A stretch of DNA of 59,831 nucleotides, counting the filler. It is 5 parts of 5 records of this genome, joined end to end, with 100 filler letters (N's around TTAATTAATTAA, not from the genome) between each part and the next. Parts side by side here need not be neighbours in the genome. Positions count along the whole stretch, not along the records: positions 48,199 to 53,235 come from SRR31156797_1184; 4 more parts are not named here. One strand, written 5' to 3'. The notes under the pieces were generated by a model that had not been told where the DNA came from, ran no database searches, and saw nothing but the letters and a program-made list of their open reading frames with translations. Shown here piece after piece: positions 2,972 through 55,748 of this stretch; the stretch's first letter is position 1; every line of letters starts with the position of its first letter. Made by a program: the position numbers and the translations under genes.

Positions 2972-3512
2972 CTAAAAGCCCATTTTTTACATCAGTATAA
3001 ATCTTTTCACCTTCTAGTATTTTAACTAGTTCAAGGGCAAACTTCATTGCAGTTGCTGGACCTTGTGATGTGATTACTTTGTCATCTATTACCACTAACT
3101 CTTCTTTTGTGTATGTAGAAGAATCAATTTTTTCTTCAAAACTTGGATAACAAGTATATTTATCATTTAAAACATCTGCTTTGTGTAAAGCATAAGGTGC
3201 AGCACAAATTGCCCCTACATATTTTCCTTTATCTTTCATCTGTTTTAATGTTTGTTTTACTAAAGAAGAATCTGCAAGGTTTTGTGTGTTTTCACCACCT
3301 CCTGGAAGTACAACCATATCAAAAACATCTAAATTTTCAATCTCTTCCAACTTTTTATCTGCTTGGATAAGCATTGAGTGGGCACCTTTTGTTAGAAGTT
3401 CATTTATAGTTGCTACCGCCACATCTATTTCTGCTCTTCTTAAAATATCAATGATAGAAACAGCTTCAATCTCTTCAAAACCTGTTGATAAAATTATAAG
3501 TACTTTTTTCAT
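2958..3512 (-). CDS. DJ-1/ThiJ/YajL family glyoxalase/deglycase
   Basis: GFEEIEA, VLPGG, AICAAP, TSQGPATA motifs; likely start MKKVLII at 3512. Confidence 0.92.
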   Translation of the reverse strand: MKKVLIILSTGFEEIEAVSIIDILRRAEIDVAVATINELLTKGAHSMLIQADKKLEEIENLDVFDMVVLPGGGENTQNLADSSLVKQTLKQMKDKGKYVGAICAAPYALHKADVLNDKYTCYPSFEEKIDSSTYTKEELVVIDDKVITSQGPATAMKFALELVKILEGEKIYTDVKNGLLATNL

Positions 3513-3646
3513 ATTTTTATCCTTTATATTTTTTGTATATATTTTATCATAACAAATGTTGTAATTATGCCTAAAAATCAATGTGTTTTAAGAATTTATA
3601 AGTTATTTTTAAATAAAATTTAAGCAATTATAATAAGGGGATTTAT

Positions 3647-26827: not shown

Positions 26828-26927
26828 NNNNNNNNNNNNNNNNNNNNNNNNNNNNNNNNNNNNNNNNNNNNTTAATTAATTAANNNNNNNNNNNNNNNNN
26901 NNNNNNNNNNNNNNNNNNNNNNNNNNN
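26828..26927. other. Artificial contig linker
   Basis: N run - TTAATTAATTAA (stops in all six frames) - N run. Confidence 0.98.
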
Positions 26928-33490: not shown

Positions 33491-33590
33491 NNNNNNNNNN
33501 NNNNNNNNNNNNNNNNNNNNNNNNNNNNNNNNNNTTAATTAATTAANNNNNNNNNNNNNNNNNNNNNNNNNNNNNNNNNNNNNNNNNNNN
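33491..33590. other. Artificial contig linker
   Basis: N run - TTAATTAATTAA - N run. Confidence 0.98.
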
Positions 33591-45525: not shown

Positions 45526-45945
45526 CTATTTTAGAGATAAAAATTCTGAATAAATTCTTACATAATCTTTTTCATCGTATTTATGCGAAGCCAGTACCAG
45601 ACAAACAGAACCGGATGAAAAATTTAGTAACTCTCTCCAGATTTCAGGTACAACATGTAAACCAATATAAGGTCGATCAAGATGAACTATTTTTTTATTG
45701 ATTCCATCATCGATTAACACATCAAAAGCACCACCAACGGCAATAATAAATTGTTCCAGTTCTTTGTGAGCGTGTCCTCCCCGGTCTTCCCCGCCTGGAA
45801 TATCATACAAATAATACACCCTCTTTACTTCGAATGGTACAGTAATATTATTTTCAAGTGCAGTAATATTTCCTGCACGATTATGAATTTTTGGCAGCTG
45901 AACAATACTGCAATTGTATATCGTATTTTTTATTTCTCCAACCAT
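45526..45945 (-). CDS. fdtA: dTDP-6-deoxy-3,4-ketohexulose isomerase (FdtA/QdtA cupin), copy 2
   Basis: GNIT, PFEVKRVYYLYDIP, RGGHAHK, WREL, VCLVLAS. Confidence 0.88.
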   Translation of the reverse strand: MVGEIKNTIYNCSIVQLPKIHNRAGNITALENNITVPFEVKRVYYLYDIPGGEDRGGHAHKELEQFIIAVGGAFDVLIDDGINKKIVHLDRPYIGLHVVPEIWRELLNFSSGSVCLVLASHKYDEKDYVRIYSEFLSLK

Positions 45946-46325
45946 GATAAATAATCTTTTAATTCTCTTATATAATCGTCTTCGTCATAATATGTTGATG
46001 TAAGAACCATTGCTAGCGAATTTGTGGAGAAGTTATTCATTTCGCGCCACAAACCTTTGGGAATGTAAAGTCCGTAATAAGAGCGGTTCAGGGAGAAGGT
46101 ATGTTTTACTTTCCCGTCATTAATCATTACGTCAAAACTCCCGGAGAGTGCTACAATTAATTCCTGTTGTTCTTTAAATGCATGTCCGCCGCGCACCTGT
46201 CCACCAGGCACGTCATAAATCCAGTACACCCGTTTAATTTTAAATGGGATGTGGTTTTCTTCTTCGATAAAGGTCAGGTTACCGCGGGGGTCTTCAAATT
46301 TTGGAAGGGAGATAATTTTAGGCAT
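45930..46325 (-). CDS. fdtA: FdtA/QdtA cupin, copy 1
   Basis: DPRGNLTFIE, PFKIKRVYWIYDVP, RGGHAFK, WREM. Confidence 0.88.
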   Translation of the reverse strand: MPKIISLPKFEDPRGNLTFIEEENHIPFKIKRVYWIYDVPGGQVRGGHAFKEQQELIVALSGSFDVMINDGKVKHTFSLNRSYYGLYIPKGLWREMNNFSTNSLAMVLTSTYYDEDDYIRELKDYLSWLEK

Positions 46326-46401
46326 TATATTTTAGTTTTTAGAGTTCTGTGTTTGGAGTTCAGGGTGCAAAAGCAAAAGTTTAAAGGTAAAAGTCATTAG
46401 T

Positions 46402-46544
46402 CTCCGCTGGCGCAGATTTGTAATCTGCGCCATAACTTTTTCATTGTGCAAACAATACAATAATTACAATCATTTCTATTTTCAGCCTTTGTGGCTGAGG
46501 TTCGCATTGCATCCCGATAATTATCGAGACGCACCAGCGAGGGG
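46402..46544. repeat. REP/REPIN-like element
   Basis: TGGCGCAGATT-TGT-AATCTGCGCCA hairpin (46408-46432); inverted ends CGCTGGCGC / GCACCAGCG; inner TCCCGATAATTATCGAGA near-palindrome. Confidence 0.7.
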
Positions 46545-46835
46545 AACTGCCTGCACCGGGAAAAACTCGCAACTGGTAACTTGTTTTAATGCCGCTGCAT
46601 GAAAAATAAAACCGACTCCCCGCATGGCATAATCGACACTTCGTTTATCGCGTACACTACCTATATAAAATTTAATTTTTGGATTATTAAGCCGGTGCCG
46701 CATATCATCCTGCTTTTTTTCATCGCGACTAAAAATTCGAATTTCTTTAATTTCCGTATCCAGAAAACGGTTTAGAACGGCATTCCCAAAAGAGCCGGTG
46801 CCACCAGTGATAAGGAGGGTTTTATTTTTAAACAT
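46521..46835 (-). pseudogene. Truncated CapD/FnlA(WbjB)-like UDP-GlcNAc 4,6-dehydratase
   Basis: ITGGTGSFG, FSRDEKKQDDMR, FHAAALKQV.SCEFFP; family resemblance stops after codon 97 at the repeat boundary, whereas full-length members are roughly 340 aa. Confidence 0.85.
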
Positions 46836-48098: not shown

Positions 48099-48198
48099 NN
48101 NNNNNNNNNNNNNNNNNNNNNNNNNNNNNNNNNNNNNNNNNNTTAATTAATTAANNNNNNNNNNNNNNNNNNNNNNNNNNNNNNNNNNNNNNNNNNNN
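48099..48198. other. Artificial contig linker
   Basis: N run - TTAATTAATTAA - N run. Confidence 0.98.
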
Positions 48199-48199
48199 A

Positions 48200-49066
48200 G
48201 ATGATTTGATCACATTTAAAGCGGGCTCAGGTCGTGCGGGAACATTTTCTTCAGGTCTTCATACTTCAGTTCCGATAAAAATGATCGAAACAGGCTCCCA
48301 AGAAGAAGGTTTTGTGAAAAAACTTAAGAAAAGAACGTTTTCCTACAATATAGACCTTAAATTAAAAGGTAGTCAAAGCTTCTTTGTTGTGCCTCTTGGA
48401 AAACAGACTTCCGTTTCACTTTCATCGTCCTGGGCAAGTCCAAAATTCACTGGTACATTTCTTCCTGAAACAAGAAAAGTCACTGCAAAAGGGTTCAATG
48501 CAACTTGGAACATTCTATCTTACAATAGAGACTTTCCGGATCTATGGAGCGGGTCTATCAATAATGAGATGTATAGAAATATCGCGGGTGTGGAACTGTT
48601 TATGGAAATAAATACGTACAGCAAGACAGATAGAACTGTAAAGTACGGGTTTCTCTTTATACTTTTCACATTTATAGTCTTTTTCTTTGCTGAGGTTTTC
48701 AGCAAGGTGAAAATACATCCTATCCACTACACGCTGGTGGGAATATCACTTGTTATTTTTTATATCCTGCTGCTTTCATTTGCAGAACATATGAACTTTA
48801 ATACGGCCTATCTCATTGCAATGCTTTCCACCTCCGGATTGATATCATTCTATACCTTTTCTATCTACAAAAAGAAGATAGTCGGGTTCATTGCAACTTT
48901 TGAACTCCTTGTACTTTACGGCTTTGTTTTTGTAATACTTCACATGTATGAATACGCACTTCTTGCAGGAAGTATTGGAGTATTTGTTATCCTTTCAACA
49001 GTAATGTTCTTTTCAAGATCAATAGACTGGTATAATGTACTCAAAACTTCAGATCCAGATAGTTAG
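48200..49066 (+). CDS. creD: Inner membrane protein CreD (5' truncated)
   Basis: SSWASPKFTGTFLP, GFNATW, DRTVKYGFLFI, IHPIHYTLVG, LLLSFAEH, YALLAGS, RSIDWY. Confidence 0.92.
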   Translation, partial: DDLITFKAGSGRAGTFSSGLHTSVPIKMIETGSQEEGFVKKLKKRTFSYNIDLKLKGSQSFFVVPLGKQTSVSLSSSWASPKFTGTFLPETRKVTAKGFNATWNILSYNRDFPDLWSGSINNEMYRNIAGVELFMEINTYSKTDRTVKYGFLFILFTFIVFFFAEVFSKVKIHPIHYTLVGISLVIFYILLLSFAEHMNFNTAYLIAMLSTSGLISFYTFSIYKKKIVGFIATFELLVLYGFVFVILHMYEYALLAGSIGVFVILSTVMFFSRSIDWYNVLKTSDPDS

Positions 49067-49086
49067 GGCCTTGATTTAGTTTGTGT

Positions 49087-49115
49087 TTGCAAAGCGATTC
49101 TGATATGTTTATAGT
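49087..49115 (+). promoter_or_regulatory. Sigma70-type promoter for the three-gene operon
   Basis: TTGCAA (49087-49092) - 17 nt - TATAGT (49110-49115), followed by GGGGA RBS and ATG at 49138. Confidence 0.6.
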
Positions 49116-49137
49116 CACTGAAATTGGGGATATAACG

Positions 49138-50172
49138 ATGTGCTTTAAGACTCAGATAAGTGAAAAATATAAGAGCAGTTCAGGAAGAAAAGATCTCACA
49201 GAAACGTTTTGCAAACAGATTGAGAAAGTTGCAGGGATTCTTAGGAAGAAGTATAAGTATGACGTTGTGATAGCTCAATATATGGATGATCTCAGACAAT
49301 CTTTTATGATATATCTTATAGAGCATGAATCAGTGTGGGAACGTTCTTTTTCCTTTGAATCCATTTCTTCATTCTTTAAGATCGAACTTGACTATTTTAT
49401 TGGTGAGCAGACGGAGAGTTTAAGGCGAAGCGGATACAGAACACTTGCAAGATGGGTGAGAGAGGCTCTAGGTAGTGACAAAACCTTTGATGATCACAGG
49501 ATAAAGGGAAAAAAGAACAGGATTCAGTTGCTTTTTGGTTTAAGTTGCTGGGTTGATGAAAAACCTCTTTTTAAAGATCTTTATTCGTCCTTTATACAAT
49601 TTAAGAGTGAAGCCCTGGACAAGGATGCTTATCTGTCTTTTAACCCGCTTACTCAGACAAAACCTGAATTTGATCAGTTAGTTTCCACAGGCGCATATGA
49701 TAGTGGTATTGATGATCAGATAAGGACATGCTCGGAGGTTCTTCTTGATCTTAGTAAAGCATGGTGCAGTGTTTCTGAACTGATCGGTGGATTTAAAGAG
49801 TTCTGGCTTGAACTTGATGGTGCAGATGAAAGCGTTGGAGATGATATTGCGGTTCGCTCTGCTGAACTTGATCAGATACTTTATGACGAATCAGCAAACG
49901 GAATGAAGGTCTTTCTTGGGAACTGCAGTTTTTTGGAGGTATCAATACTTAAGGCGATACTTTCGGACAAAACTTCAGGGAAGGTTAAGTTCCAGGATGT
50001 CGCGAAACTGCATAATGTCAGTTCTTCGACAGTTTCAGATCATAAAAAGAAGCTCATGGAAAAGCTATCTAAAGTATTGAGCGATATGGATGAGGGATCT
50101 AGATCTTTATCAGTAAATGCTCTGACAGATCTGACGGATTCACTTGTGGAGGCAAAAAATGAAAGTTTATGA
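49138..50172 (+). CDS. Divergent sigma-factor-like protein with C-terminal sigma4-type HTH
   Basis: N-terminal helical region (MDDLRQSFMIYLI, sigma2-like); C-terminal FQDVAKLHNVSSSTVSDHKKKLMEKL HTH; long central insert. Confidence 0.55.
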   Translation: MCFKTQISEKYKSSSGRKDLTETFCKQIEKVAGILRKKYKYDVVIAQYMDDLRQSFMIYLIEHESVWERSFSFESISSFFKIELDYFIGEQTESLRRSGYRTLARWVREALGSDKTFDDHRIKGKKNRIQLLFGLSCWVDEKPLFKDLYSSFIQFKSEALDKDAYLSFNPLTQTKPEFDQLVSTGAYDSGIDDQIRTCSEVLLDLSKAWCSVSELIGGFKEFWLELDGADESVGDDIAVRSAELDQILYDESANGMKVFLGNCSFLEVSILKAILSDKTSGKVKFQDVAKLHNVSSSTVSDHKKKLMEKLSKVLSDMDEGSRSLSVNALTDLTDSLVEAKNESL

Positions 50173-50995
50173 AATATGGTCACTTGCTGAACATGGATTG
50201 TTTGAGGAATCTATCTACAGTCCCATCTTTCTTATAACGGAAATAGATGATGCAAAAATATCCGGTTATCCCGTCTTTTTCGGTGATAGCATGGCCGGCA
50301 ACAATGATGTTAAAATAAGTCTAAGTAATGATAGTTACAAAAATGTCTGGATAGATTCCACGTTTCTAACGATACATGTCTCTTCCTGTCTTAAAAAGCT
50401 ATCAGATGTAGATGACAGGGCCTTGAGTGACATTATCGGTGCTCAAAACGGCTCTGAAAGTGTTAAAAGGGGTAGAGTTTGTCTTGAGGTTGGCGATCCA
50501 CTTGCTGATATTAAGGCTCAAATGAAAGACTTTTTCCTAAATTATAGTGAAATAAGTTTTAGCAGGCATTTTGAATCGATCCCTGATATCATTAAAAAAG
50601 GTATAAAGTCTCTTCTTACCTTTGATGTGGCTGACCTTGTTACGCAACAGGCATCTGGTGGAAATAGAGTTGAAAGTAGAGTTGTTGAAAAGAACAGCAT
50701 CGAAATAAACTATTCTCTTGAAAGACGTATAGATCAGGATGGAGACCTTGTCATCTCTATCAACGGTAGGGCCAATATAAAAAGTGATGGAGATTTCAGG
50801 ATATGGCTTGTTCTTTCTAAAGATGATGCTGAACTTTTCAGAAAAGAGATAAGCATTGATAGTGAACATTTTGAGGAATATTACTACCGTGAGGAACTTG
50901 TGGCCAATGCGCTTGATCCAGAAATTGTAATGGAGCAGCTTGAAAAAGGTGATCTAAAGTGTTATCTGATCATTGATTCCGGAATTGAGGGGTGA
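50159..50995 (+). CDS. Hypothetical two-domain protein, putative anti-sigma factor / protease substrate
   Basis: ATG at 50159 with GGAGG RBS overlapping the upstream gene; N-terminal EIWSL..PIFLIT..SGYPV..AGNNDV (PemK/MazF-like pattern), QQASGG linker, acidic beta-rich C-terminus. Confidence 0.5.
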   Translation: MKVYEIWSLAEHGLFEESIYSPIFLITEIDDAKISGYPVFFGDSMAGNNDVKISLSNDSYKNVWIDSTFLTIHVSSCLKKLSDVDDRALSDIIGAQNGSESVKRGRVCLEVGDPLADIKAQMKDFFLNYSEISFSRHFESIPDIIKKGIKSLLTFDVADLVTQQASGGNRVESRVVEKNSIEINYSLERRIDQDGDLVISINGRANIKSDGDFRIWLVLSKDDAELFRKEISIDSEHFEEYYYREELVANALDPEIVMEQLEKGDLKCYLIIDSGIEG

Positions 50996-50999
50996 GGTA

Positions 51000-53235
51000 G
51001 TGAAAGATAAAAAGATATTTTTTCCTATTATCAGAAATAAAACGGTTTTTTCACATCCTGTCAGATCAGAGCTGGAAAATCCCAAAGAAGAATGGTATTT
51101 GCCGATCAGAAAGAAGATAAATGAACTTTCCTATAAAAAAACGCTCTTAAATTTCCTGCCGACCGATATTCGAATGGGAGGTTATGCTTTTCCGCAAAAG
51201 AGTGGCGATATTCCTACTAGAGATTTTGGGGAGAGTTGGACTCTTGCAGGCTTGATGGATCTTCTATGTCAGGGAATGCATCCAAGCCCCTGGCTTCCTG
51301 AAAATGTTCTTGCAACTGGCCAGATAAGGGTTGAGCTTGGAAAGGTTTATGTCGGTAGAGTTGACAGTTTTCAGGATAAATTTGAACATTTTTTAAAGGA
51401 CGGAAGATTTTCGATATTCATAGTTCCCTCAGAAAACCTGGCAGATGTCGGAAAGGCTCGAACAGGTGTAATGTTTCTAAACCTTAATGAACTTAAGAAC
51501 AGCAGGCGGAAGATAAGAAAGATAAATGAAAAAGTAGTTATTTCCGTTGGGTCTTCACCGGAAGAACTAGAGCTTCTAATTTCACTTTTCTTTAGTTACG
51601 GAAAGAAGAGTGAAAAATGGGAAATGCCGAAGATTTTTACGCCACTTCGAGTAGTTATACTTTCCCTGTTAATTTTGATCGGTTTTACTGCCGGTGGTGT
51701 TTTTTCTGTGCCGTTACCTGAATATAATCTTGAAAGAAAACAAAGCACTGTAGTTTATGATGCACATGGTGATATATTAAGAGTTTTCAGGAGCGAATAT
51801 GGTCAATTTATTATGCCATACCGCTCCAATGAAGACATTCCTGAAAAGTTGAAAAGATCAGTTCTCTTTTTTGAGGACAGACAGTTCTATAATCACTTTG
51901 GTGTAAATCCTTTTTCTGTTTTGCGTGCACTTTATCAGAATATCTCAAAGGGTCGTAAGTTTAGCGGTGCAAGTACTATTACGATGCAGTTAGCGCGTCT
52001 CATGAAGGAAAAGGACAGGTCTTTTTCTAATAAGATACTGGAAACTTTTCAAGCTCTCAAACTTGAAACAAAATACGATAAGGAAGACATTTTAAGAAAG
52101 TATCTCACTTTCTGTCCTTATGGCGGAAATATCTATGGATACAGAACAGCTTCGCTTAGGTATTTTAGAAAAGAACCTGATCAGCTTAGTTGGGCGGAAT
52201 CAGCGCTGCTTGCAATTCTTCCAAATGCACCCGGACTTATGCATCCGGAAAAGAATAGAGATAATCTTATAAAGAAAAGAGATAGGCTTTTAAAAAGGCT
52301 TTTTGAAGCCAGCATCATGGATAAAGATGCATTTGACCAGGCGGTCTCAGAAAAAGTTCCACGTATAGCTTGGCCTTTTGATACAGGAGCCTGGCATGCA
52401 ACAAGATACCTTCGTTTAAAAACAAAGAAACGTTCAATTGTTACAAGTATTTTGAAGTCTTCTCAGAATAAAACGGAAAAACTTTTAAAGAGCTCTGATG
52501 CGAAGATAAGCTTAACCAACGTAGCTGCTGTAGCAGTTGAGAATAAAACAGGAGAAGTGAGGATCTGGGTCGGTTCACAGGATTTCTTTAACGACTATAT
52601 TAACGGTCAGGTGGACGGCACGCTTGCAAGAAGACCGGCAGCTGGAATGCTTCAGCCTTTTCTTTATTCTCTTGCAATTGATAAAGGATTGCTTTCTCCG
52701 GAATCTAAGATCCTTGATGTTTCTCAAAAATATAAGAACTACAGTCCGACAAATAGAGATGGAAAATTTCTGGGAAAGGTTCTTGCAACAACAGCGCTTT
52801 CAAAACAAAGGACAGTTCCGGCTGTAAGGTTGTTAGATGTTGTCGGGGTTGAGGAGTTTTTCACCTTCTTAAAAGTTGCAGGACTTAGAACTCTCAATTA
52901 TCCTCCGCAGTGGTATAGCTACTCACTAGTTTCAGGTGGTACTGACGTAAGATTGATTGATCTAGCGAAGCTTTATAGCGGACTTGCAAGATACGGAAAG
53001 TTCTCAACGCTGAGTCTTGAAGGAAAAAGAAAACAACTGCCAACAGATGCTAAACAGCTTATTTCTGCTGAATCATCATGGAAGGTGCTTGAAAAGATGA
53101 TGTCACACGTTGAGATAGAAGGACAAAAGGCAGTTGTAAGTAGAACTTGCACAAGAACAAATAAAGATTGCTGGGTTGTAGCTATGACTCCACGCTGGAC
53201 AGTTGCGTACTGGGGAGGAGATCTAAATGGTAGTA
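51000..53235 (+). CDS. Fusion protein: Lon(S16)-like protease domain + TM + PBP1C-like transglycosylase and degenerate transpeptidase (3' truncated)
   Basis: GESWTLA...ATGQI...VGRVDSFQDK...FIVPSEN; hydrophobic helix; EDRQFYNHFGVN, GASTITMQLAR, PYGGNIYG, GQVDG; likely GTG start at 51000. Confidence 0.8.
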
Positions 53236-53335
53236 NNNNNNNNNNNNNNNNNNNNNNNNNNNNNNNNNNNNNNNNNNNNTTAATTAATTAANNNNNNNNN
53301 NNNNNNNNNNNNNNNNNNNNNNNNNNNNNNNNNNN
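53236..53335. other. Artificial contig linker
   Basis: N run - TTAATTAATTAA - N run. Confidence 0.98.
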
Positions 53336-53585: not shown

Positions 53586-54050
53586 TTAACGATGAACTAA
53601 ATTTATACTGTTATCATCTATATACTCTTTTAGATTAAGTTGAAGTTCTAATATATCAACCTTTTCTGTATTCATCACTCTAAAGGTCTCTTGCGAATCT
53701 GTTATTACAAATCTGCCTGAGTTTACGAAAGAACTCCCGATAATAAATTCAAGCACTTCACCTTTTAGAATATATTCATTTATCTTCTGACTGAGAACCA
53801 AAGGTTCTTGATTCATAAGTCCTCTAATCAGTTTCATTCTGAAACTTATCTCTCGTCCTTTTGGATTGGAGAATTCAAGGCGCGGATATGAATTTTGTGC
53901 TTTCTGTTCAGCATAATCAGCACTTGTTTTTCTTGTTAGATTATTATAAGTAAGAATATTTTTAGTACTCGTTTCAAATATTATATCTCCCAGTTTTCCT
54001 AATTTCCCTACTTTATCTGTTTTCCCACTTCTTTCAAGTTGTCCCATCAT
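53586..54050 (-). CDS. Phage tail protein, P2 GpU-like
   Basis: GKLGDIIFE..ILTYNNL.R...YAE....PRLEF, LNLKEY; gene order. Confidence 0.8.
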   Translation of the reverse strand: MMGQLERSGKTDKVGKLGKLGDIIFETSTKNILTYNNLTRKTSADYAEQKAQNSYPRLEFSNPKGREISFRMKLIRGLMNQEPLVLSQKINEYILKGEVLEFIIGSSFVNSGRFVITDSQETFRVMNTEKVDILELQLNLKEYIDDNSINLVHR

Positions 54051-54058
54051 TCTCCTTT

Positions 54059-54712
54059 CTATCCAGTTGGTGGTGTTGTTACTTTTGTTGCCGGCCCTCC
54101 ACAGAATGCATCAACATACTGATGAGCATGTTCATTTTGTGAAGCAACTGCTGGTGTTTTTAAGTCCGTATCTGTTTTTATTAATCCGCCAACATCTAGA
54201 GTTCCTGACATAATCGTATTTCCAGTTATTGTTAAAGTTGGCGTTATTATGTCAGCATTTGTTCTTGCATTTAATTCAAAAGTTTCACATTCAAAATTTA
54301 ACTTTTCTGCCGCTTCTACTCTTATATTTGTCGCACTAATCTCTATATCCCCAACACTATGCAGTTTAAACAATTTATTTTTTCTATCATAAGAGACTTC
54401 AGTTCCATCTTCAAATTTAAATGCTTTCATGTTATTCTCAGCAAAATTTCCCGGCACATTTGTAACAGTATAGATACTGCCTATCACAAAACCTGTATTT
54501 CTAGCAATTGGAAGGAATAAGCACAGTACCTGCTCATCAATGGTGAACATATCATAGTCCGTATCTTTTTCTGTTCTTCGCATGATAACTTGTAGTTCAG
54601 CAGATTGTATCCCTGACAAATCATCAAATTGAACTCGGACTGTTGCCCGCTCTGGATAAATTGTCTTAACTCTTCCTATCCTGATTATTTTACTTAATAA
54701 TTTATTTATCAT
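54059..54712 (-). CDS. Baseplate spike protein, P2 gpV-like
   Basis: IIRIGRV..ATVRVQF OB-fold, EQVLCLF..GFVIGSIY, FEDGTEVSYD, C-terminal HAH motif. Confidence 0.88.
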   Translation of the reverse strand: MINKLLSKIIRIGRVKTIYPERATVRVQFDDLSGIQSAELQVIMRRTEKDTDYDMFTIDEQVLCLFLPIARNTGFVIGSIYTVTNVPGNFAENNMKAFKFEDGTEVSYDRKNKLFKLHSVGDIEISATNIRVEAAEKLNFECETFELNARTNADIITPTLTITGNTIMSGTLDVGGLIKTDTDLKTPAVASQNEHAHQYVDAFCGGPATKVTTPPTG

Positions 54713-54713
54713 A

Positions 54714-55748
54714 TCAGTACCTCAGTACTTTCCTTAATTTCAACGAGCAGTTATAACTTCTTCCACCTGAATGAACTACCTGCTCAATTATGTATCTCCC
54801 ATCATATTTTCCAAAGTTCACTATATCGCAGGTTAATCCCGCCTGATATTTTGGATCACCGATAAGTTCAAGTGTTCCGCTTGTTTCCAGTTTATTCTTC
54901 TCACGTAATCTCTTTTGAGCTCTCTTATTTAGATACTGTATCTTCTCACTCACTGATGTTCCCGGAACGCTTGCAGATTCATTTAGTCTAATAACCCTTG
55001 GTTTTTTTGATTTATAGTACTCTCGTTTCGGTGCTGTAAATGATCCTTCGTATGTTTTTCCCCACATACCTTTTGTGTAGGTAATTACACATTTGTCATA
55101 TGTATCAACATCTTCAGAGCTAAACGAATAACTTTTTACTCCTTTTATTCTGTCGAAAACGAAAGTTGGTTCTCGCATTTCATATGTTTCCTCTTCAAAG
55201 AAAACAAAACTGCTATTTATCATTTTCAACTGAATTCCATTTTGATTAGCCAATCTGGACAGGAGTTTCAAGTCACTCTCCTCTATTTGCTCTACTCTGT
55301 CAAACTTAATCTCTTCAGCATCATATAGCAGTTCCAATCCACTAGCACTGGCTTTCTCTTTTGCTATCTGCTCCAGAGTTATGTTTTCCCAAGTCATATT
55401 TTTCTTTTCATCTTTAATATTCTTATTTATATCAATACTTACTGCCGAGACTTCGGTAACAGCAGGAGGGCCGGAAAATCTATCAGAATCAACTGTAAAT
55501 GTTCCGCAGCTTAGCATCCTGTTGTCACCGGAATAATCCCAATCAGAAGTCATAATATCTGCTTCGAGTTTTTCTCCCTTTAGGAAGTGCCACTCATTTA
55601 TAAATTTATCACCTCGAAGGGTCAATGACAGATCATCTAGTTTATCCAAATTATCAGTATATCTCCAGCTAAGTACGTATGCGCTCAGATCATTTGTTAT
55701 ATCTGTTCCTTCTGCCTTTACTTTTAGCTTTACTTGTCTCGCTAACAT
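54714..55748 (-). CDS. Baseplate hub / late control protein, P2 GpD-like
   Basis: GTDIT.DL, YTDN...DDLSL, WENITL, QIEESDLKLL, FGKYDGRYIIEQVVH. Confidence 0.88.
   Translation of the reverse strand: MLARQVKLKVKAEGTDITNDLSAYVLSWRYTDNLDKLDDLSLTLRGDKFINEWHFLKGEKLEADIMTSDWDYSGDNRMLSCGTFTVDSDRFSGPPAVTEVSAVSIDINKNIKDEKKNMTWENITLEQIAKEKASASGLELLYDAEEIKFDRVEQIEESDLKLLSRLANQNGIQLKMINSSFVFFEEETYEMREPTFVFDRIKGVKSYSFSSEDVDTYDKCVITYTKGMWGKTYEGSFTAPKREYYKSKKPRVIRLNESASVPGTSVSEKIQYLNKRAQKRLREKNKLETSGTLELIGDPKYQAGLTCDIVNFGKYDGRYIIEQVVHSGGRSYNCSLKLRKVLRY

Follow-up and report, generated by a model that had tools for sequence, protein, structure and literature searches.

Background

In the DegS/RseP-RseA-sigma E pathway, an envelope signal leads to cleavage of a sigma factor inhibitor. 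BlaR1 carries a sensor that is acylated by beta-lactams, and its protease is a zinc metalloprotease. Its design has been described as an outward PBP-derived module coupled through the lipid bilayer to a protease on the cytoplasmic face, which in turn governs a DNA-binding protein (PMC9834060). The type III CRISPR system CalpL-CalpT-CalpS consists of a SAVED-Lon protease, an anti-sigma and an ECF-like sigma. CalpL, an antiviral effector, is the closest earlier example of a Lon domain used in signalling; as described in a preprint, it cuts CalpT in an Ala-rich linker (LAA|A) following ligand-driven filament formation (bioRxiv 10.1101/2024.05.08.593097). DdcP/YlbL of Bacillus subtilis is reported as a membrane-anchored, ATP-independent Lon peptidase with a PDZ domain that removes one particular regulatory protein, YneA (bioRxiv 10.1101/391730).

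Here we describe an operon, located in an analysed stretch of DNA of 59,831 nucleotides (hereafter the window), that encodes a helix-turn-helix (HTH) protein (ORF1), a soluble partner (ORF2) and a membrane protein (ORF3) in which a predicted Lon-fold protease domain is joined to a PBP1C-like module. A first-pass annotation had read these genes as a sigma/anti-sigma/Lon protease cascade of the Calp type with a cell-wall sensor. The three-part logic is upheld in part: the Lon fold, the Ser and Lys residues, the PBP1C module, the HTH and the gene order are all present, and it is plausible that a receptor protease here controls a transcription factor, but ORF1, ORF2 and ORF3 all fall outside the CalpS, CalpT and CalpL families.

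Results and discussion

Organization and conservation of the locus

The window consists of concatenated contigs separated by N44-TTAATTAATTAA-N44 linkers (at 26828, 33491, 48099 and 53236), and the finding is confined to a single 5,037-bp contig (48199-53235), on whose + strand a truncated creD is followed by ORF1, ORF2 and ORF3, the last being cut at the contig end (Table 1). As initially annotated, gene 2 starts inside gene 1 and gene 3 starts just past the gene 2 stop: ORF2 overlaps the end of ORF1 by 14 nt and a 4-nt gap precedes ORF3. Both the overlap and a gap of 3-4 nt recur in two further loci, L001 and L002, and homologues of the three genes do co-occur, in the same order in all four loci for which DNA was available (the window, L001, L002 and L003). 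When homologues were paired by equal contig size, all three were placed together on a 2829024-nt contig, ORF2 with ORF3 on contigs of 7399, 19624 and 9478 nt, ORF1 with ORF3 on one of 44194 nt and ORF1 with ORF2 on one of 7971 nt; the most divergent ORF3 homologue (P0006, 12713-nt contig) had no ORF1 or ORF2 match of equal contig size.

A full-length CreD is encoded directly upstream of ORF1 in both L001 and L002, and creD, which the first-pass annotation had left out, belongs to a conserved block creD-ORF1-ORF2-ORF3. The expression of creD has been presented as a read-out of the CreBC response, which is tied to PBP inactivation and beta-lactams (PMC4689548, PMC2654508). This link, together with the conserved position of creD, gives the block a cell-wall theme.

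The 38-nt spacer between creD and ORF1 is a candidate promoter/operator of the three genes, with 37 of 42 columns invariant in a three-locus alignment versus 11 of 39 in the adjacent 3' end of creD; its 20-nt core has a single mismatch-free occurrence in the window. Ahead of ORF1 a single promoter-like match lies on the + strand (49086-49115, scoring 9/12); it is not above chance, nine such matches having been found against 12.5 +/- 3.3 in shuffled sequences.

Table 1. Features of the creD-ORF1-ORF2-ORF3 contig, in window coordinates
Feature	Position	Strand	Basis or remark
creD, inner-membrane protein CreD	48206..49066	+	Pfam PF06123 CreD, E 6.9e-93, profile positions 166-428; 5' end truncated by contig start at 48199
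Conserved creD-ORF1 spacer, candidate promoter/operator of ORF1-3	49069..49107	+	Three-locus alignment
ORF1, soluble protein, 355 aa from ATG 49105	49105..50172	+	Homologue lengths
ORF1 predicted HTH domain, residues ~240-320 (344-aa numbering)	49855..50097	+	AF2 model and VIA-align
ORF2, soluble 278-aa protein, candidate substrate/adaptor	50159..50995	+	ATG start
ORF2 small-residue linker QQASGGN, candidate cleavage site	50645..50665	+	Alignment of 9 sequences
ORF3, bitopic membrane protein	51000..53235	+	GTG start; 3' end lost at contig end
ORF3 predicted Lon-fold protease domain, cytoplasmic, without AAA+ module	51000..51614	+	AF2, Foldseek, VIA-align
Candidate nucleophile Ser79 (GESW)	51234..51236	+	Ser88 if numbered from TTG 50973
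Candidate general-base Lys127 (FQDKF)	51378..51380	+	MAFFT, hhalign
Single transmembrane helix	51651..51707	+	Kyte-Doolittle, 19-residue window, 2.38
GT51 peptidoglycan glycosyltransferase domain	51825..52301	+	Pfam Transgly, E 1.1e-49
Transpeptidase-like domain, pseudo-transpeptidase	52524..53235	+	Pfam Transpeptidase, only E 1e-08

ORF3 begins with a Lon-fold domain

The start codon of ORF3 is preceded by GAGGGG and its homologues start at the same place; the six found are 785-865 aa long and 49-83% identical over the N-domain. The N-terminal ~205 residues, for which Pfam gave no match, yielded an AF2 model with a pLDDT of 71.9 and a pTM of 0.75, and among the Foldseek matches listed Lon proteolytic domains were found throughout (best E 5.1e-5). 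In a VIA-align comparison with 48,161 chains, the best 16 (Z 13.0-10.8) were RadA, Lon, ComM, BrxL and LonC; CalpL (7qda) reached Z 9.3 at 19% identity and birnavirus VP4 Z 7.1-8.0, while non-Lon-like chains stayed at or below 3.7 and a second CalpL entry (9eyi) scored 3.9. By model comparison, the domain thus clearly folds as a Lon proteolytic domain, as the first reading of the sequence had proposed. Sequence searches did not identify the family: none of eight Pfam members matched at E<=10, and a profile of the N-domain found no Lon among PDB sequences.

A MAFFT alignment of 20 copies of the domain (7 close, 13 from 10 distant proteins) retains a G-x-S serine in all 20 and an F-x-x-K-L lysine in 18. 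When the 20-copy profile was aligned to residues 585-784 of E. coli Lon with hhalign (E 2.1e-4, 163 columns), the serine fell on Ser679 (GPSAG) and the lysine on K724, two residues after the catalytic K722. The domain therefore appears to keep Ser and Lys where Lon has its dyad, which supports its prediction as a protease. Alternatively, it could be a non-catalytic scaffold for oligomerization or partner binding, as in RadA and ComM, which share the Lon-like fold and are not known as proteases. Their Z scores (13.0 and 12.7) match the level of true Lon, the conserved lysine lies off the K722 alignment position, and the residues after the serine, SWTLAG, are unlike the SAG of Lon. Such a role is nevertheless improbable given that both residues persist among distant proteins only 22-33% identical overall, and that the lysine is lost solely in the extra first copies of two tandem-duplicated relatives, which would make sense if the functional copy depends on it.

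A PBP1C-like module outside the cell

A hydrophobic segment comes after the Lon-like domain or domains in all 17 proteins examined, and since the protease domain precedes the helix, as the corresponding part does in class A PBPs, it is expected to be cytoplasmic. Beyond the helix, ORF3 matches the PBP1C family TIGR02073 with 478.7 bits (E 3.9e-143), a score under the curated cut-off of 494.2. Its GT51 motifs (EDRQF, GASTITMQ, NKILE) align with those of E. coli PbpC and are intact, so that ORF3 is probably a working glycosyltransferase. The transpeptidase, in contrast to that of PbpC, has lost all three catalytic motifs: SVLK (SxxK) has become GMLQ, SLN (SxN) QRT and KTGT (KTG) RTCT, changes that are identical in the seven family sequences covering them. 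The loss of these motifs means no acylation by beta-lactams; on this sequence evidence beta-lactam sensing by acylation of ORF3 is excluded, and with it that route for the cell-wall antibiotic sensing first envisaged.

An active glycosyltransferase would also suit a purely local role, in which the Lon-like domain tunes glycan polymerization by trimming or removing either ORF3 itself or proteins that partner the synthase in the cytoplasm, with no transcriptional output, ORF1 and ORF2 being merely co-expressed. Lon-family proteases are, moreover, mostly quality-control enzymes. We regard this role as quite unlikely: no AAA+ unfoldase is present in ORF3, tight translational coupling to the HTH protein is kept in all four loci, and relatives fuse the same protease domain to non-enzymatic sensors (CHASE2, TPR, Lcl_C). 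The outer module of distant relatives is CHASE2 in three and, in one each, FGE-sulfatase, CsgG/LpoB-like, PEGA+Lcl_C, TPR and TPR+caspase. Different outer modules behind the same protease domain and helix are typical of a signalling output domain whose sensors can be exchanged, which lends support to the idea that the sensor has been swapped here.

Caspase domains and TPR arrays are common in conflict systems. Their presence in one and two distant relatives, respectively, and the antiviral function of CalpL would fit a conflict or abortive-infection system in which the outer module detects a wall breach by phage and the protease triggers defence. None of the three proteins, however, was matched by PADLOC (best E 0.0093), and the neighbouring genes in L002 have housekeeping or envelope functions (CreD, PAS-GGDEF, MMPL, DUF58, transglutaminase), with no CRISPR, cyclase or nuclease gene in the 14 kb of that locus. 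This is the least probable of the readings considered.

ORF1 ends in a sigma-region-4/LuxR-like HTH

Most of the six homologues of ORF1 (50-61% identity) are 355 aa long and share its N-terminal extension; an alternative start at ATG 49138 would give 344 aa. A scan for hydrophobic segments found none in ORF1 or in ORF2. Sequence matches to an HTH were sub-threshold, both for the best Pfam match (GerE, E 0.011) and for TIGR02937 (E 0.008, positions 134-164). In the AF2 model the HTH alone is confident (pLDDT 61-86), the N-terminal 240 residues falling below 50. VIA-align matched it at Z 5.3-6.8 with the region 4 domains of sigma-H, sigma-32, SigL, SigK, SigE, SigW, CnrH and others, and at least 14 of 17 rows mapping to residues 234-334 were sigma-factor region 4 chains; the LuxR-type EL222 was also among the matches (Z 5.7). 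On the model, the C-terminus of ORF1 looks like a sigma-region-4/LuxR-like HTH. The protein had been taken as sigma-like, and at the level of fold this holds for region 4. Sigma region 2 was matched by none of seven Pfam models, and an hhalign comparison with five sigma factors of E. coli was non-significant (probability 11%, E 0.0027), although its collinear alignment sets a conserved ORF1 motif, DD(F/L)xQSF, on region 2.1.

These results leave room for a variant of the BlaR1/BlaI scheme in which ORF1 is an ordinary LuxR/GerE-like repressor or activator and not a sigma factor, being either the substrate of the protease or released by it, with ORF2 as adaptor or anti-repressor. The HTH is the sole supported part of ORF1, its best Pfam match and one fold match are of the GerE/LuxR type, region 2 was not found, and the topology of ORF3, with a PBP-like module outside and a protease facing the cytoplasm, resembles that described for BlaR1 (PMC9834060). 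Yet sigma region 4 makes up the majority of the fold matches, the non-significant alignment to region 2.1 points the same way, the ORF3 sensor lacks the acylatable Ser required for BlaR1 signalling, and searches for BlaI/Penicillinase_R and M56 gave no match. We consider this variant unlikely.

ORF2 is a candidate substrate

ORF2 has GGAGG 6 nt upstream of its ATG and eight homologues (55-92% identity). It was first described as anti-sigma or CalpT-like, which found no support: the protein had no match in Pfam, NCBIfam, PADLOC or PDB sequences, and no MazF-like domain, DUF2080 or anti-sigma signature was detected. Its linker, QQA(S/A)GGN, has invariant Q, A, G, G and N in all nine aligned sequences, with S or A at the fourth position. 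By analogy, because the conserved A|(S/A)G shape fits the CalpL cut, we infer that this linker may be a protease cleavage site.

Comparison with described systems

Like CalpL, ORF3 would contain an ATP-independent Lon-fold Ser-Lys domain fused to a sensor, and its gene adjoins those for a soluble, putatively two-part protein and for an HTH protein. The differences are considerable: there is no SAVED domain, CRISPR/cyclase context or cyclic-nucleotide ligand here, the protease is membrane-anchored with its sensor outside the cell, ORF2 gave neither a MazF-like nor a DUF2080 match, an ECF sigma is half as large as ORF1, in which no region 2 was detected, and the gene order is HTH, partner, protease. 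With BlaR1/MecR1-BlaI/MecI the locus shares an outward PBP-derived module, a cytoplasm-facing protease and a DNA-binding partner, and departs from it in the Lon fold, the degenerate transpeptidase and the apparently working GT51.

The helix, GT51 and transpeptidase of ORF3 follow the order found in PBP1C-type class A PBPs such as E. coli PbpC, which has no counterpart of the ~215-residue cytoplasmic Lon-like domain before the helix; conversely, the C-terminal domain of PbpC is missing in ORF3 homologues P0001-P0004, and the alpha2-macroglobulin neighbour of E. coli yfhM-pbpC is absent. DdcP/YlbL likewise has a Lon-peptidase domain without ATP dependence tethered by one helix (N-terminal in DdcP), but in its description the protease is extracellular and paired with PDZ, whereas that of ORF3 precedes the helix and the PBP1C-like module lies outside. 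Finally, the conversion of an envelope signal into cleavage of a partner, as proposed here, recalls DegS/RseP-RseA-sigma E; RseA-type anti-sigmas, however, are membrane-spanning proteins cleaved by two distinct enzymes, a site-1 and a site-2 protease, while ORF3 would combine sensor and protease in a single chain and ORF2, as the putative inhibitor, is soluble.

A proposed route from cell wall to transcription

Our preferred reading, to which we assign somewhat less than even odds (about 0.45), is that ORF3 is a receptor-protease that reports cell-wall status and cuts a partner, probably ORF2, thereby freeing or altering ORF1. The protease activity, substrate, cleavage site, ORF1-ORF2 binding, signal and regulon in this scheme are all conjectural. 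The extracytoplasmic GT51 and dead transpeptidase module would report on peptidoglycan synthesis through lipid II, nascent glycan or stem-peptide occupancy, and this signal would shift the oligomeric state or exposure of the cytoplasmic, ATP-independent Ser-Lys domain. Once activated, the protease would cut a soluble partner encoded on the same mRNA and translationally coupled to it, most likely ORF2 at QQA|(S/A)GGN. The HTH protein, freed or altered, would then change transcription, probably including that of its own block, creD-ORF1-ORF2-ORF3. The operon thus looks like an undescribed proteolytic switch that carries cell-wall status to gene expression.

Organisation and conservation of the gene block

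The window is made up of separate contigs, at least five, joined by four N44-TTAATTAATTAA-N44 linkers, so that genes flanking a linker are not neighbours. The GC content is 0.24-0.33 in positions 1-26827 and 0.31-0.41 in the remainder, and the pieces may derive from more than one organism. The contig studied here (5,037 bp) is low in GC, about 0.35-0.38, and carries four genes on the plus strand: the 3' two-thirds of creD (Pfam CreD, E 6.9e-93), ORF1 (an HTH protein), ORF2 (a protein of no known family) and ORF3 (a Lon-like domain, a helix and a PBP1C-like module), the last of which is cut at the contig end. The tight coupling of ORF1 to ORF3 described in the first-pass annotation was correct: the ATG of ORF2, 6 nt after a GGAGG, overlaps the final 14 nt of ORF1, and the GTG of ORF3, preceded by GAGGGG, lies 4 nt past the ORF2 stop. 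Two corrections apply to that description. The start of ORF1 possibly lies 33 nt further upstream: an MF..T.IE N-terminal extension is common to its homologues, and in two of these Val stands where the window has its second Met. In addition creD, 38 nt upstream of ORF1, belongs to the conserved block.

A database of 5.8 billion clusters yielded six relatives of the ORF3 N-terminal region, six of ORF1 and eight of ORF2. Gene order was compared by tblastn between the window and three fetched metagenome loci (L001, L002 and L003). The order CreD-ORF1-ORF2-ORF3 is kept in L001 and L002, both with the same 14-nt overlap and a gap of 3 nt, and L003 carries part of ORF1, ORF2 and part of ORF3 in the same order. 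Identical lengths of the longest contig link further homologues, one length (2829024) for the three proteins together and five other lengths for pairs of them. The architecture of the block is real, conserved and unannotated.

The 38-nt spacer between creD and ORF1, with two TGATT words ~24 nt apart, is invariant in 37 of 42 columns across three loci, as against 11 of 39 in the adjoining 3' end of creD. Conservation so far above that of the adjoining coding sequence suggests a candidate cis element; a scan for consensus promoters and terminators gave match counts at or below the shuffled expectation. A 107-aa ORF whose C-terminal stretch is hydrophobic and which has no family match stands upstream of creD in both L001 and L002; the two loci diverge beyond it, and the block possibly begins with this ORF. 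In L002 the block is followed by a PAS-GGDEF diguanylate cyclase gene in convergent orientation to ORF3; further on, the locus encodes a collagen-repeat protein containing Lcl_C, a domain that is also the outer module of P0022, a distant relative of ORF3. Within the window, genes for sugar modification, one FdtA/WxcM-like (E 7.1e-53) and the other a short fragment of Polysacc_synt_2, stand at the end of the contig preceding the studied one. On the following contig are tail genes of P2-type phages, namely GpU (E 1.2e-15) and an ORF weakly resembling baseplate-hub GpD/YQBQ, which suggest a piece of a prophage or tailocin.

Coordinates of the features discussed in the window and in metagenome loci L001 and L002
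Feature	Sequence	Location	Strand
Linkers	window	26828-26927, 33491-33590, 48099-48198, 53236-53335	
Studied contig	window	48199-53235	
creD, 3' two-thirds	window	48206-49066	+
creD-ORF1 spacer	window	49069-49107	
creD-ORF1 spacer	L002	2061-2099	
creD-ORF1 spacer	L001	about 3482-3520	
ORF1	window	49105 or 49138 to 50172	+
ORF2	window	50159-50995	+
ORF3	window	51000 to contig end	+
107-aa ORF	L002	279-602	
107-aa ORF	L001	1761-2084	
PAS-GGDEF diguanylate cyclase	L002	6358-7260	-
Collagen-repeat protein with Lcl_C	L002	13107-14066	-
Sugar-modification genes	window	45930-46835	-
P2-type phage tail genes	window	53586-55748	-

A predicted Lon-like domain at the N-terminus of ORF3

All Pfam and NCBIfam matches of ORF3 are confined to its PBP part, and the first ~215 residues gave no sequence match in Pfam, NCBIfam, PADLOC or a profile comparison with PDB sequences. 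An AlphaFold2 model of this region, built with six homologues in the alignment (pLDDT 71.9, pTM 0.75), retrieved only Lon proteolytic domains among the Foldseek matches listed (best E 5.1e-5). When it was compared with 48,161 chains by VIA-align, the best 16 rows were Lon, RadA, ComM, BrxL and LonC domains (Z 13.0-10.8), followed by CalpL (7qda_A; rmsd 2.8, 127 residues aligned, 19% identity) and then by birnavirus VP4 proteases (Z 8.0-7.1). Outside the Lon-like chains no score exceeded Z 3.7, and a second CalpL entry, 9eyi, scored 3.9. The "Lon protease domain" first read from the raw sequence was therefore right at the level of the fold, which begins at about residue 10 and is followed by a membrane helix.

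Ten distant relatives of the domain were recovered by a full-library profile search (E 2.6e-9 to 9.2e-4); two scans of species-representative genomes, run with no more than two or six peptide patterns, found no relatives. When 20 domain copies were aligned with MAFFT, every one had the Ser of G-x-S-x-x-[LF]-A; the T of a T-G motif and the Lys of F-x-x-K-L-x-x-F are each kept in 18, and an [LF]-F-I-V-P-x-x-N motif is general. Both copies lacking the Lys are first copies in proteins with a doubled domain. Aligned by hhalign with residues 585-784 of E. coli Lon (E 2.1e-4, 163 columns, 46% probability), the 20-copy profile pairs the family Ser with Ser679 of GPSAG, TG with the Lon TG, VPSEN with IPFEN, and the family Lys (Lys127 in ORF3) with K724, two residues after K722. 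We take S679 and K722 to be the catalytic residues of E. coli Lon. Because the Ser falls on Ser679 and the Lys within two residues of K722, Ser79 and Lys127 of ORF3 are read as a probable Ser-Lys dyad. That the Lon-like domain is instead a non-catalytic scaffold we consider quite improbable; the Lys is missing from two copies, and the Ser from none.

The predicted outer PBP1C-like module

One strongly hydrophobic segment follows the Lon-like domain or domains in all 17 of 17 proteins. Since this helix is placed as in class A PBPs, the Lon-like domain would lie in the cytoplasm and the remainder of ORF3 outside. That remainder matches Transgly (GT51; E 1.1e-49), Transpeptidase (E 1e-08) and, over profile positions 7-520 of 728, TIGR02073 PBP_1c (E 3.9e-143), the last with 478.7 bits and thus below the curated cut-off of 494.2. 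The catalytic residues of GT51 enzymes are well established, and the motifs EDRQF, GASTITMQ and NKILE are intact when aligned with E. coli PbpC. The transpeptidase motifs, in contrast, are lost: SVLK (SxxK), SLN (SxN) and KTGT (KTG) of E. coli PbpC are replaced by GMLQ, QRT and RTCT, identically in all seven family sequences covering them. As all three are replaced, the "penicillin-binding" half cannot be acylated and is, judged by its motifs, a pseudo-enzyme, for which a function as a ligand-binding module is plausible. The C-terminal domain of PbpC is missing in four close homologues of ORF3 (P0001-P0004), which end ~40 residues past the transpeptidase-like domain, and the window copy is cut at the contig end; likeness to PBP1C is limited to the GT51 half. 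That ORF3 acts in wall synthesis only, and locally, is unlikely in our estimation.

Exchange of the outer module among distant relatives

In the ten distant relatives (P0021-P0030), the modules following the Lon-like domain(s) and helix were read by Pfam. Three proteins (P0023, P0024 and P0026) have CHASE2, all with a tandem Lon-like pair; FGE-sulfatase, a CsgG/LpoB-like domain, PEGA with a beta-propeller-like region and Lcl_C (P0022), TPR arrays, and TPR with caspase occur in one relative each; two have no recognisable module. In two of the three CHASE2 relatives the first Lon-like copy has N or A instead of the conserved Lys, and the sequences suggest a dead-plus-live pair. No CHASE2-type relatives were found in a scan of viral contigs. 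A constant N-terminal domain combined with varied outer modules is the pattern expected of a signalling output domain, and of the new results this module swap most strongly supports the earlier proposal that the SAVED sensor of a CalpL-like protease is replaced here by another sensor. No account of a fusion between a Lon-like domain and PBP1C or CHASE2 turned up in the literature outside subscription journals and supplements.

The products of ORF1 and ORF2

ORF1 is predicted to be soluble and has no hydrophobic segment. Its model shows a confident fold in residues ~240-340 only, the N-terminal part being unusable; at least 14 of the 17 VIA-align rows mapping to this region are sigma-factor region 4 chains, with Z scores (5.3-6.8) that are middling for a small helical domain. 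Sequence matches are sub-threshold and generic (GerE, E 0.011; TIGR02937, E 0.008, positions 134-164 only). In Pfam, Sigma70_r4 matches one of seven family members (E 0.011), and sigma region 2 (PF04542) matches none of the seven at E<=10. An hhalign comparison with five E. coli sigma factors paired DD(F/L)xQSF with region 2.1 and the HTH with region 4.2, a collinear but not significant alignment (E 0.0027, probability 11%); with RpoE alone the probability was 1.3%. The ESM Atlas returned look-alike clusters that serve as leads only, one set having Sigma70_r2 on 14% of its members, and profile comparison with PDB sequences gave chance-level matches only. The odds between a "sigma-like" protein and an ordinary HTH regulator are roughly even.

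ORF2, likewise predicted to be soluble, has no family, PDB sequence match or Atlas match (Pfam, NCBIfam, PADLOC, profile against PDB, ESM Atlas). Its best conserved part is the C-terminal 100 residues, and its two conserved halves are joined by LV.QQA(S/A)GGN, with five positions invariant in nine of nine sequences. A Ser-Lys endopeptidase that cuts at a specific site would require a conserved linker of small residues such as this one, which we regard as a candidate cleavage site. The birnavirus VP4 proteases prefer Ala at the cut site. CalpL is described as cleaving CalpT at LAA|A within a poorly structured linker (bioRxiv 10.1101/2024.05.08.593097). Prediction of an ORF1-ORF2 complex gave an ipSAE of 0.00 in both runs, which made no use of alignments and in which the partner fold was uncertain, so that the value speaks neither for nor against binding.

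Comparison with known systems

The Lon protease fold is common to CalpL and ORF3 (Z 9.3 to 7qda_A, about 13 to Lon proper), and the catalytic dyad given for SsCalpL is S152-K193 (bioRxiv 10.1101/2024.05.08.593097). CalpL, however, has a C-terminal SAVED sensor, whereas ORF3 has no SAVED match and carries instead the helix, GT51 and transpeptidase-like domain. CalpT has MazF-like and DUF2080 domains; both are absent from nine ORF2 family members at E<=10 in Pfam, and the ORF2 profile found no CalpT match among PDB sequences, so that ORF2 is not a CalpT by sequence. The type III CRISPR and cyclic oligoadenylate context of CalpL is present neither on the 5-kb contig nor in 14.25 kb of L002, where the sole Cas10-palm match is a sub-threshold echo of the GGDEF domain (E 8.7e-4). 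PADLOC gave no match below E 0.009 for the three proteins, and that the block is a defence system appears very improbable.

LonA and LonB carry an AAA+ module in the same chain, whereas ORF3 has no AAA match. A membrane-tethered, ATP-independent Lon peptidase can remove specific regulators, as reported for DdcP/YlbL (bioRxiv 10.1101/391730), whose protease is extracellular, whereas the Lon-like domain of ORF3 is probably cytoplasmic. In BlaR1/MecR1 the sensor Ser is acylatable and the protease is an M56 zinc metalloprotease; ORF3 has Gly in place of the SxxK Ser, and its protease domain has the Lon fold, without a Peptidase_M56 match. That the block is BlaR1/BlaI-like, with ORF1 as a plain regulator, is unlikely. 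The block would work like CalpL-CalpT-CalpS and BlaR1-BlaI but is a member of neither; SAVED, a CRISPR context, MazF/DUF2080, an acylatable Ser and M56 were all looked for and not found.

Proposed mechanism

We consider it most likely, with a probability of roughly 0.45, that ORF3 is a receptor-protease. The cytoplasmic Lon-like domain would respond to the state of the outer GT51 and pseudo-transpeptidase module, for example through oligomerisation, for which the ligand-driven filament formation described for CalpL offers a precedent (bioRxiv 10.1101/2024.05.08.593097). The activated protease would cut ORF2 at its linker, and ORF1, once freed, would alter transcription. Its own block, with creD, may be the target; in other bacteria creD is known as a read-out of an envelope response linked to PBPs and beta-lactams, as the sources describe it (PMC4689548, PMC2654508). 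The gene arrangement and Lon domain observed at first pass are confirmed, and the CalpS-CalpT-CalpL-like cascade built on them is partly supported.

More tentatively, ORF3 and its distant relatives could form an undescribed class of one-component transmembrane receptor-proteases, with a shared cytoplasmic, ATP-independent Lon-fold Ser-Lys output domain and exchangeable extracytoplasmic sensors (PBP1C-type synthase, CHASE2, FGE-sulfatase, LpoB/CsgG-like, Lcl_C), the PBP1C member being the first case of a peptidoglycan glycosyltransferase that, with a dead transpeptidase for binding a ligand, directly drives proteolytic release of a sigma-like transcription factor; taken as a whole, this is possible but doubtful.

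Conclusion

How bacteria signal failing wall synthesis to the cytoplasm is only partly understood, the known routes being kinases, two-component systems and the BlaR1 metalloprotease. The block is best called a variant of regulated-proteolysis signalling, and there is a fair chance that with ORF3 a broader class of receptor-proteases has its first member described. If the proposed mechanism is true, a wall synthase with its own cytoplasmic protease would tie gene expression directly to lipid II or to the polymerisation of glycan. Relatives bearing different outer modules point to a general output domain for signalling, one missed by current domain libraries, since no Pfam model matches it in the 18 proteins scanned. 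The principle of CalpL, a Lon-fold domain acting as a specific signalling endopeptidase, would then extend beyond CRISPR defence.
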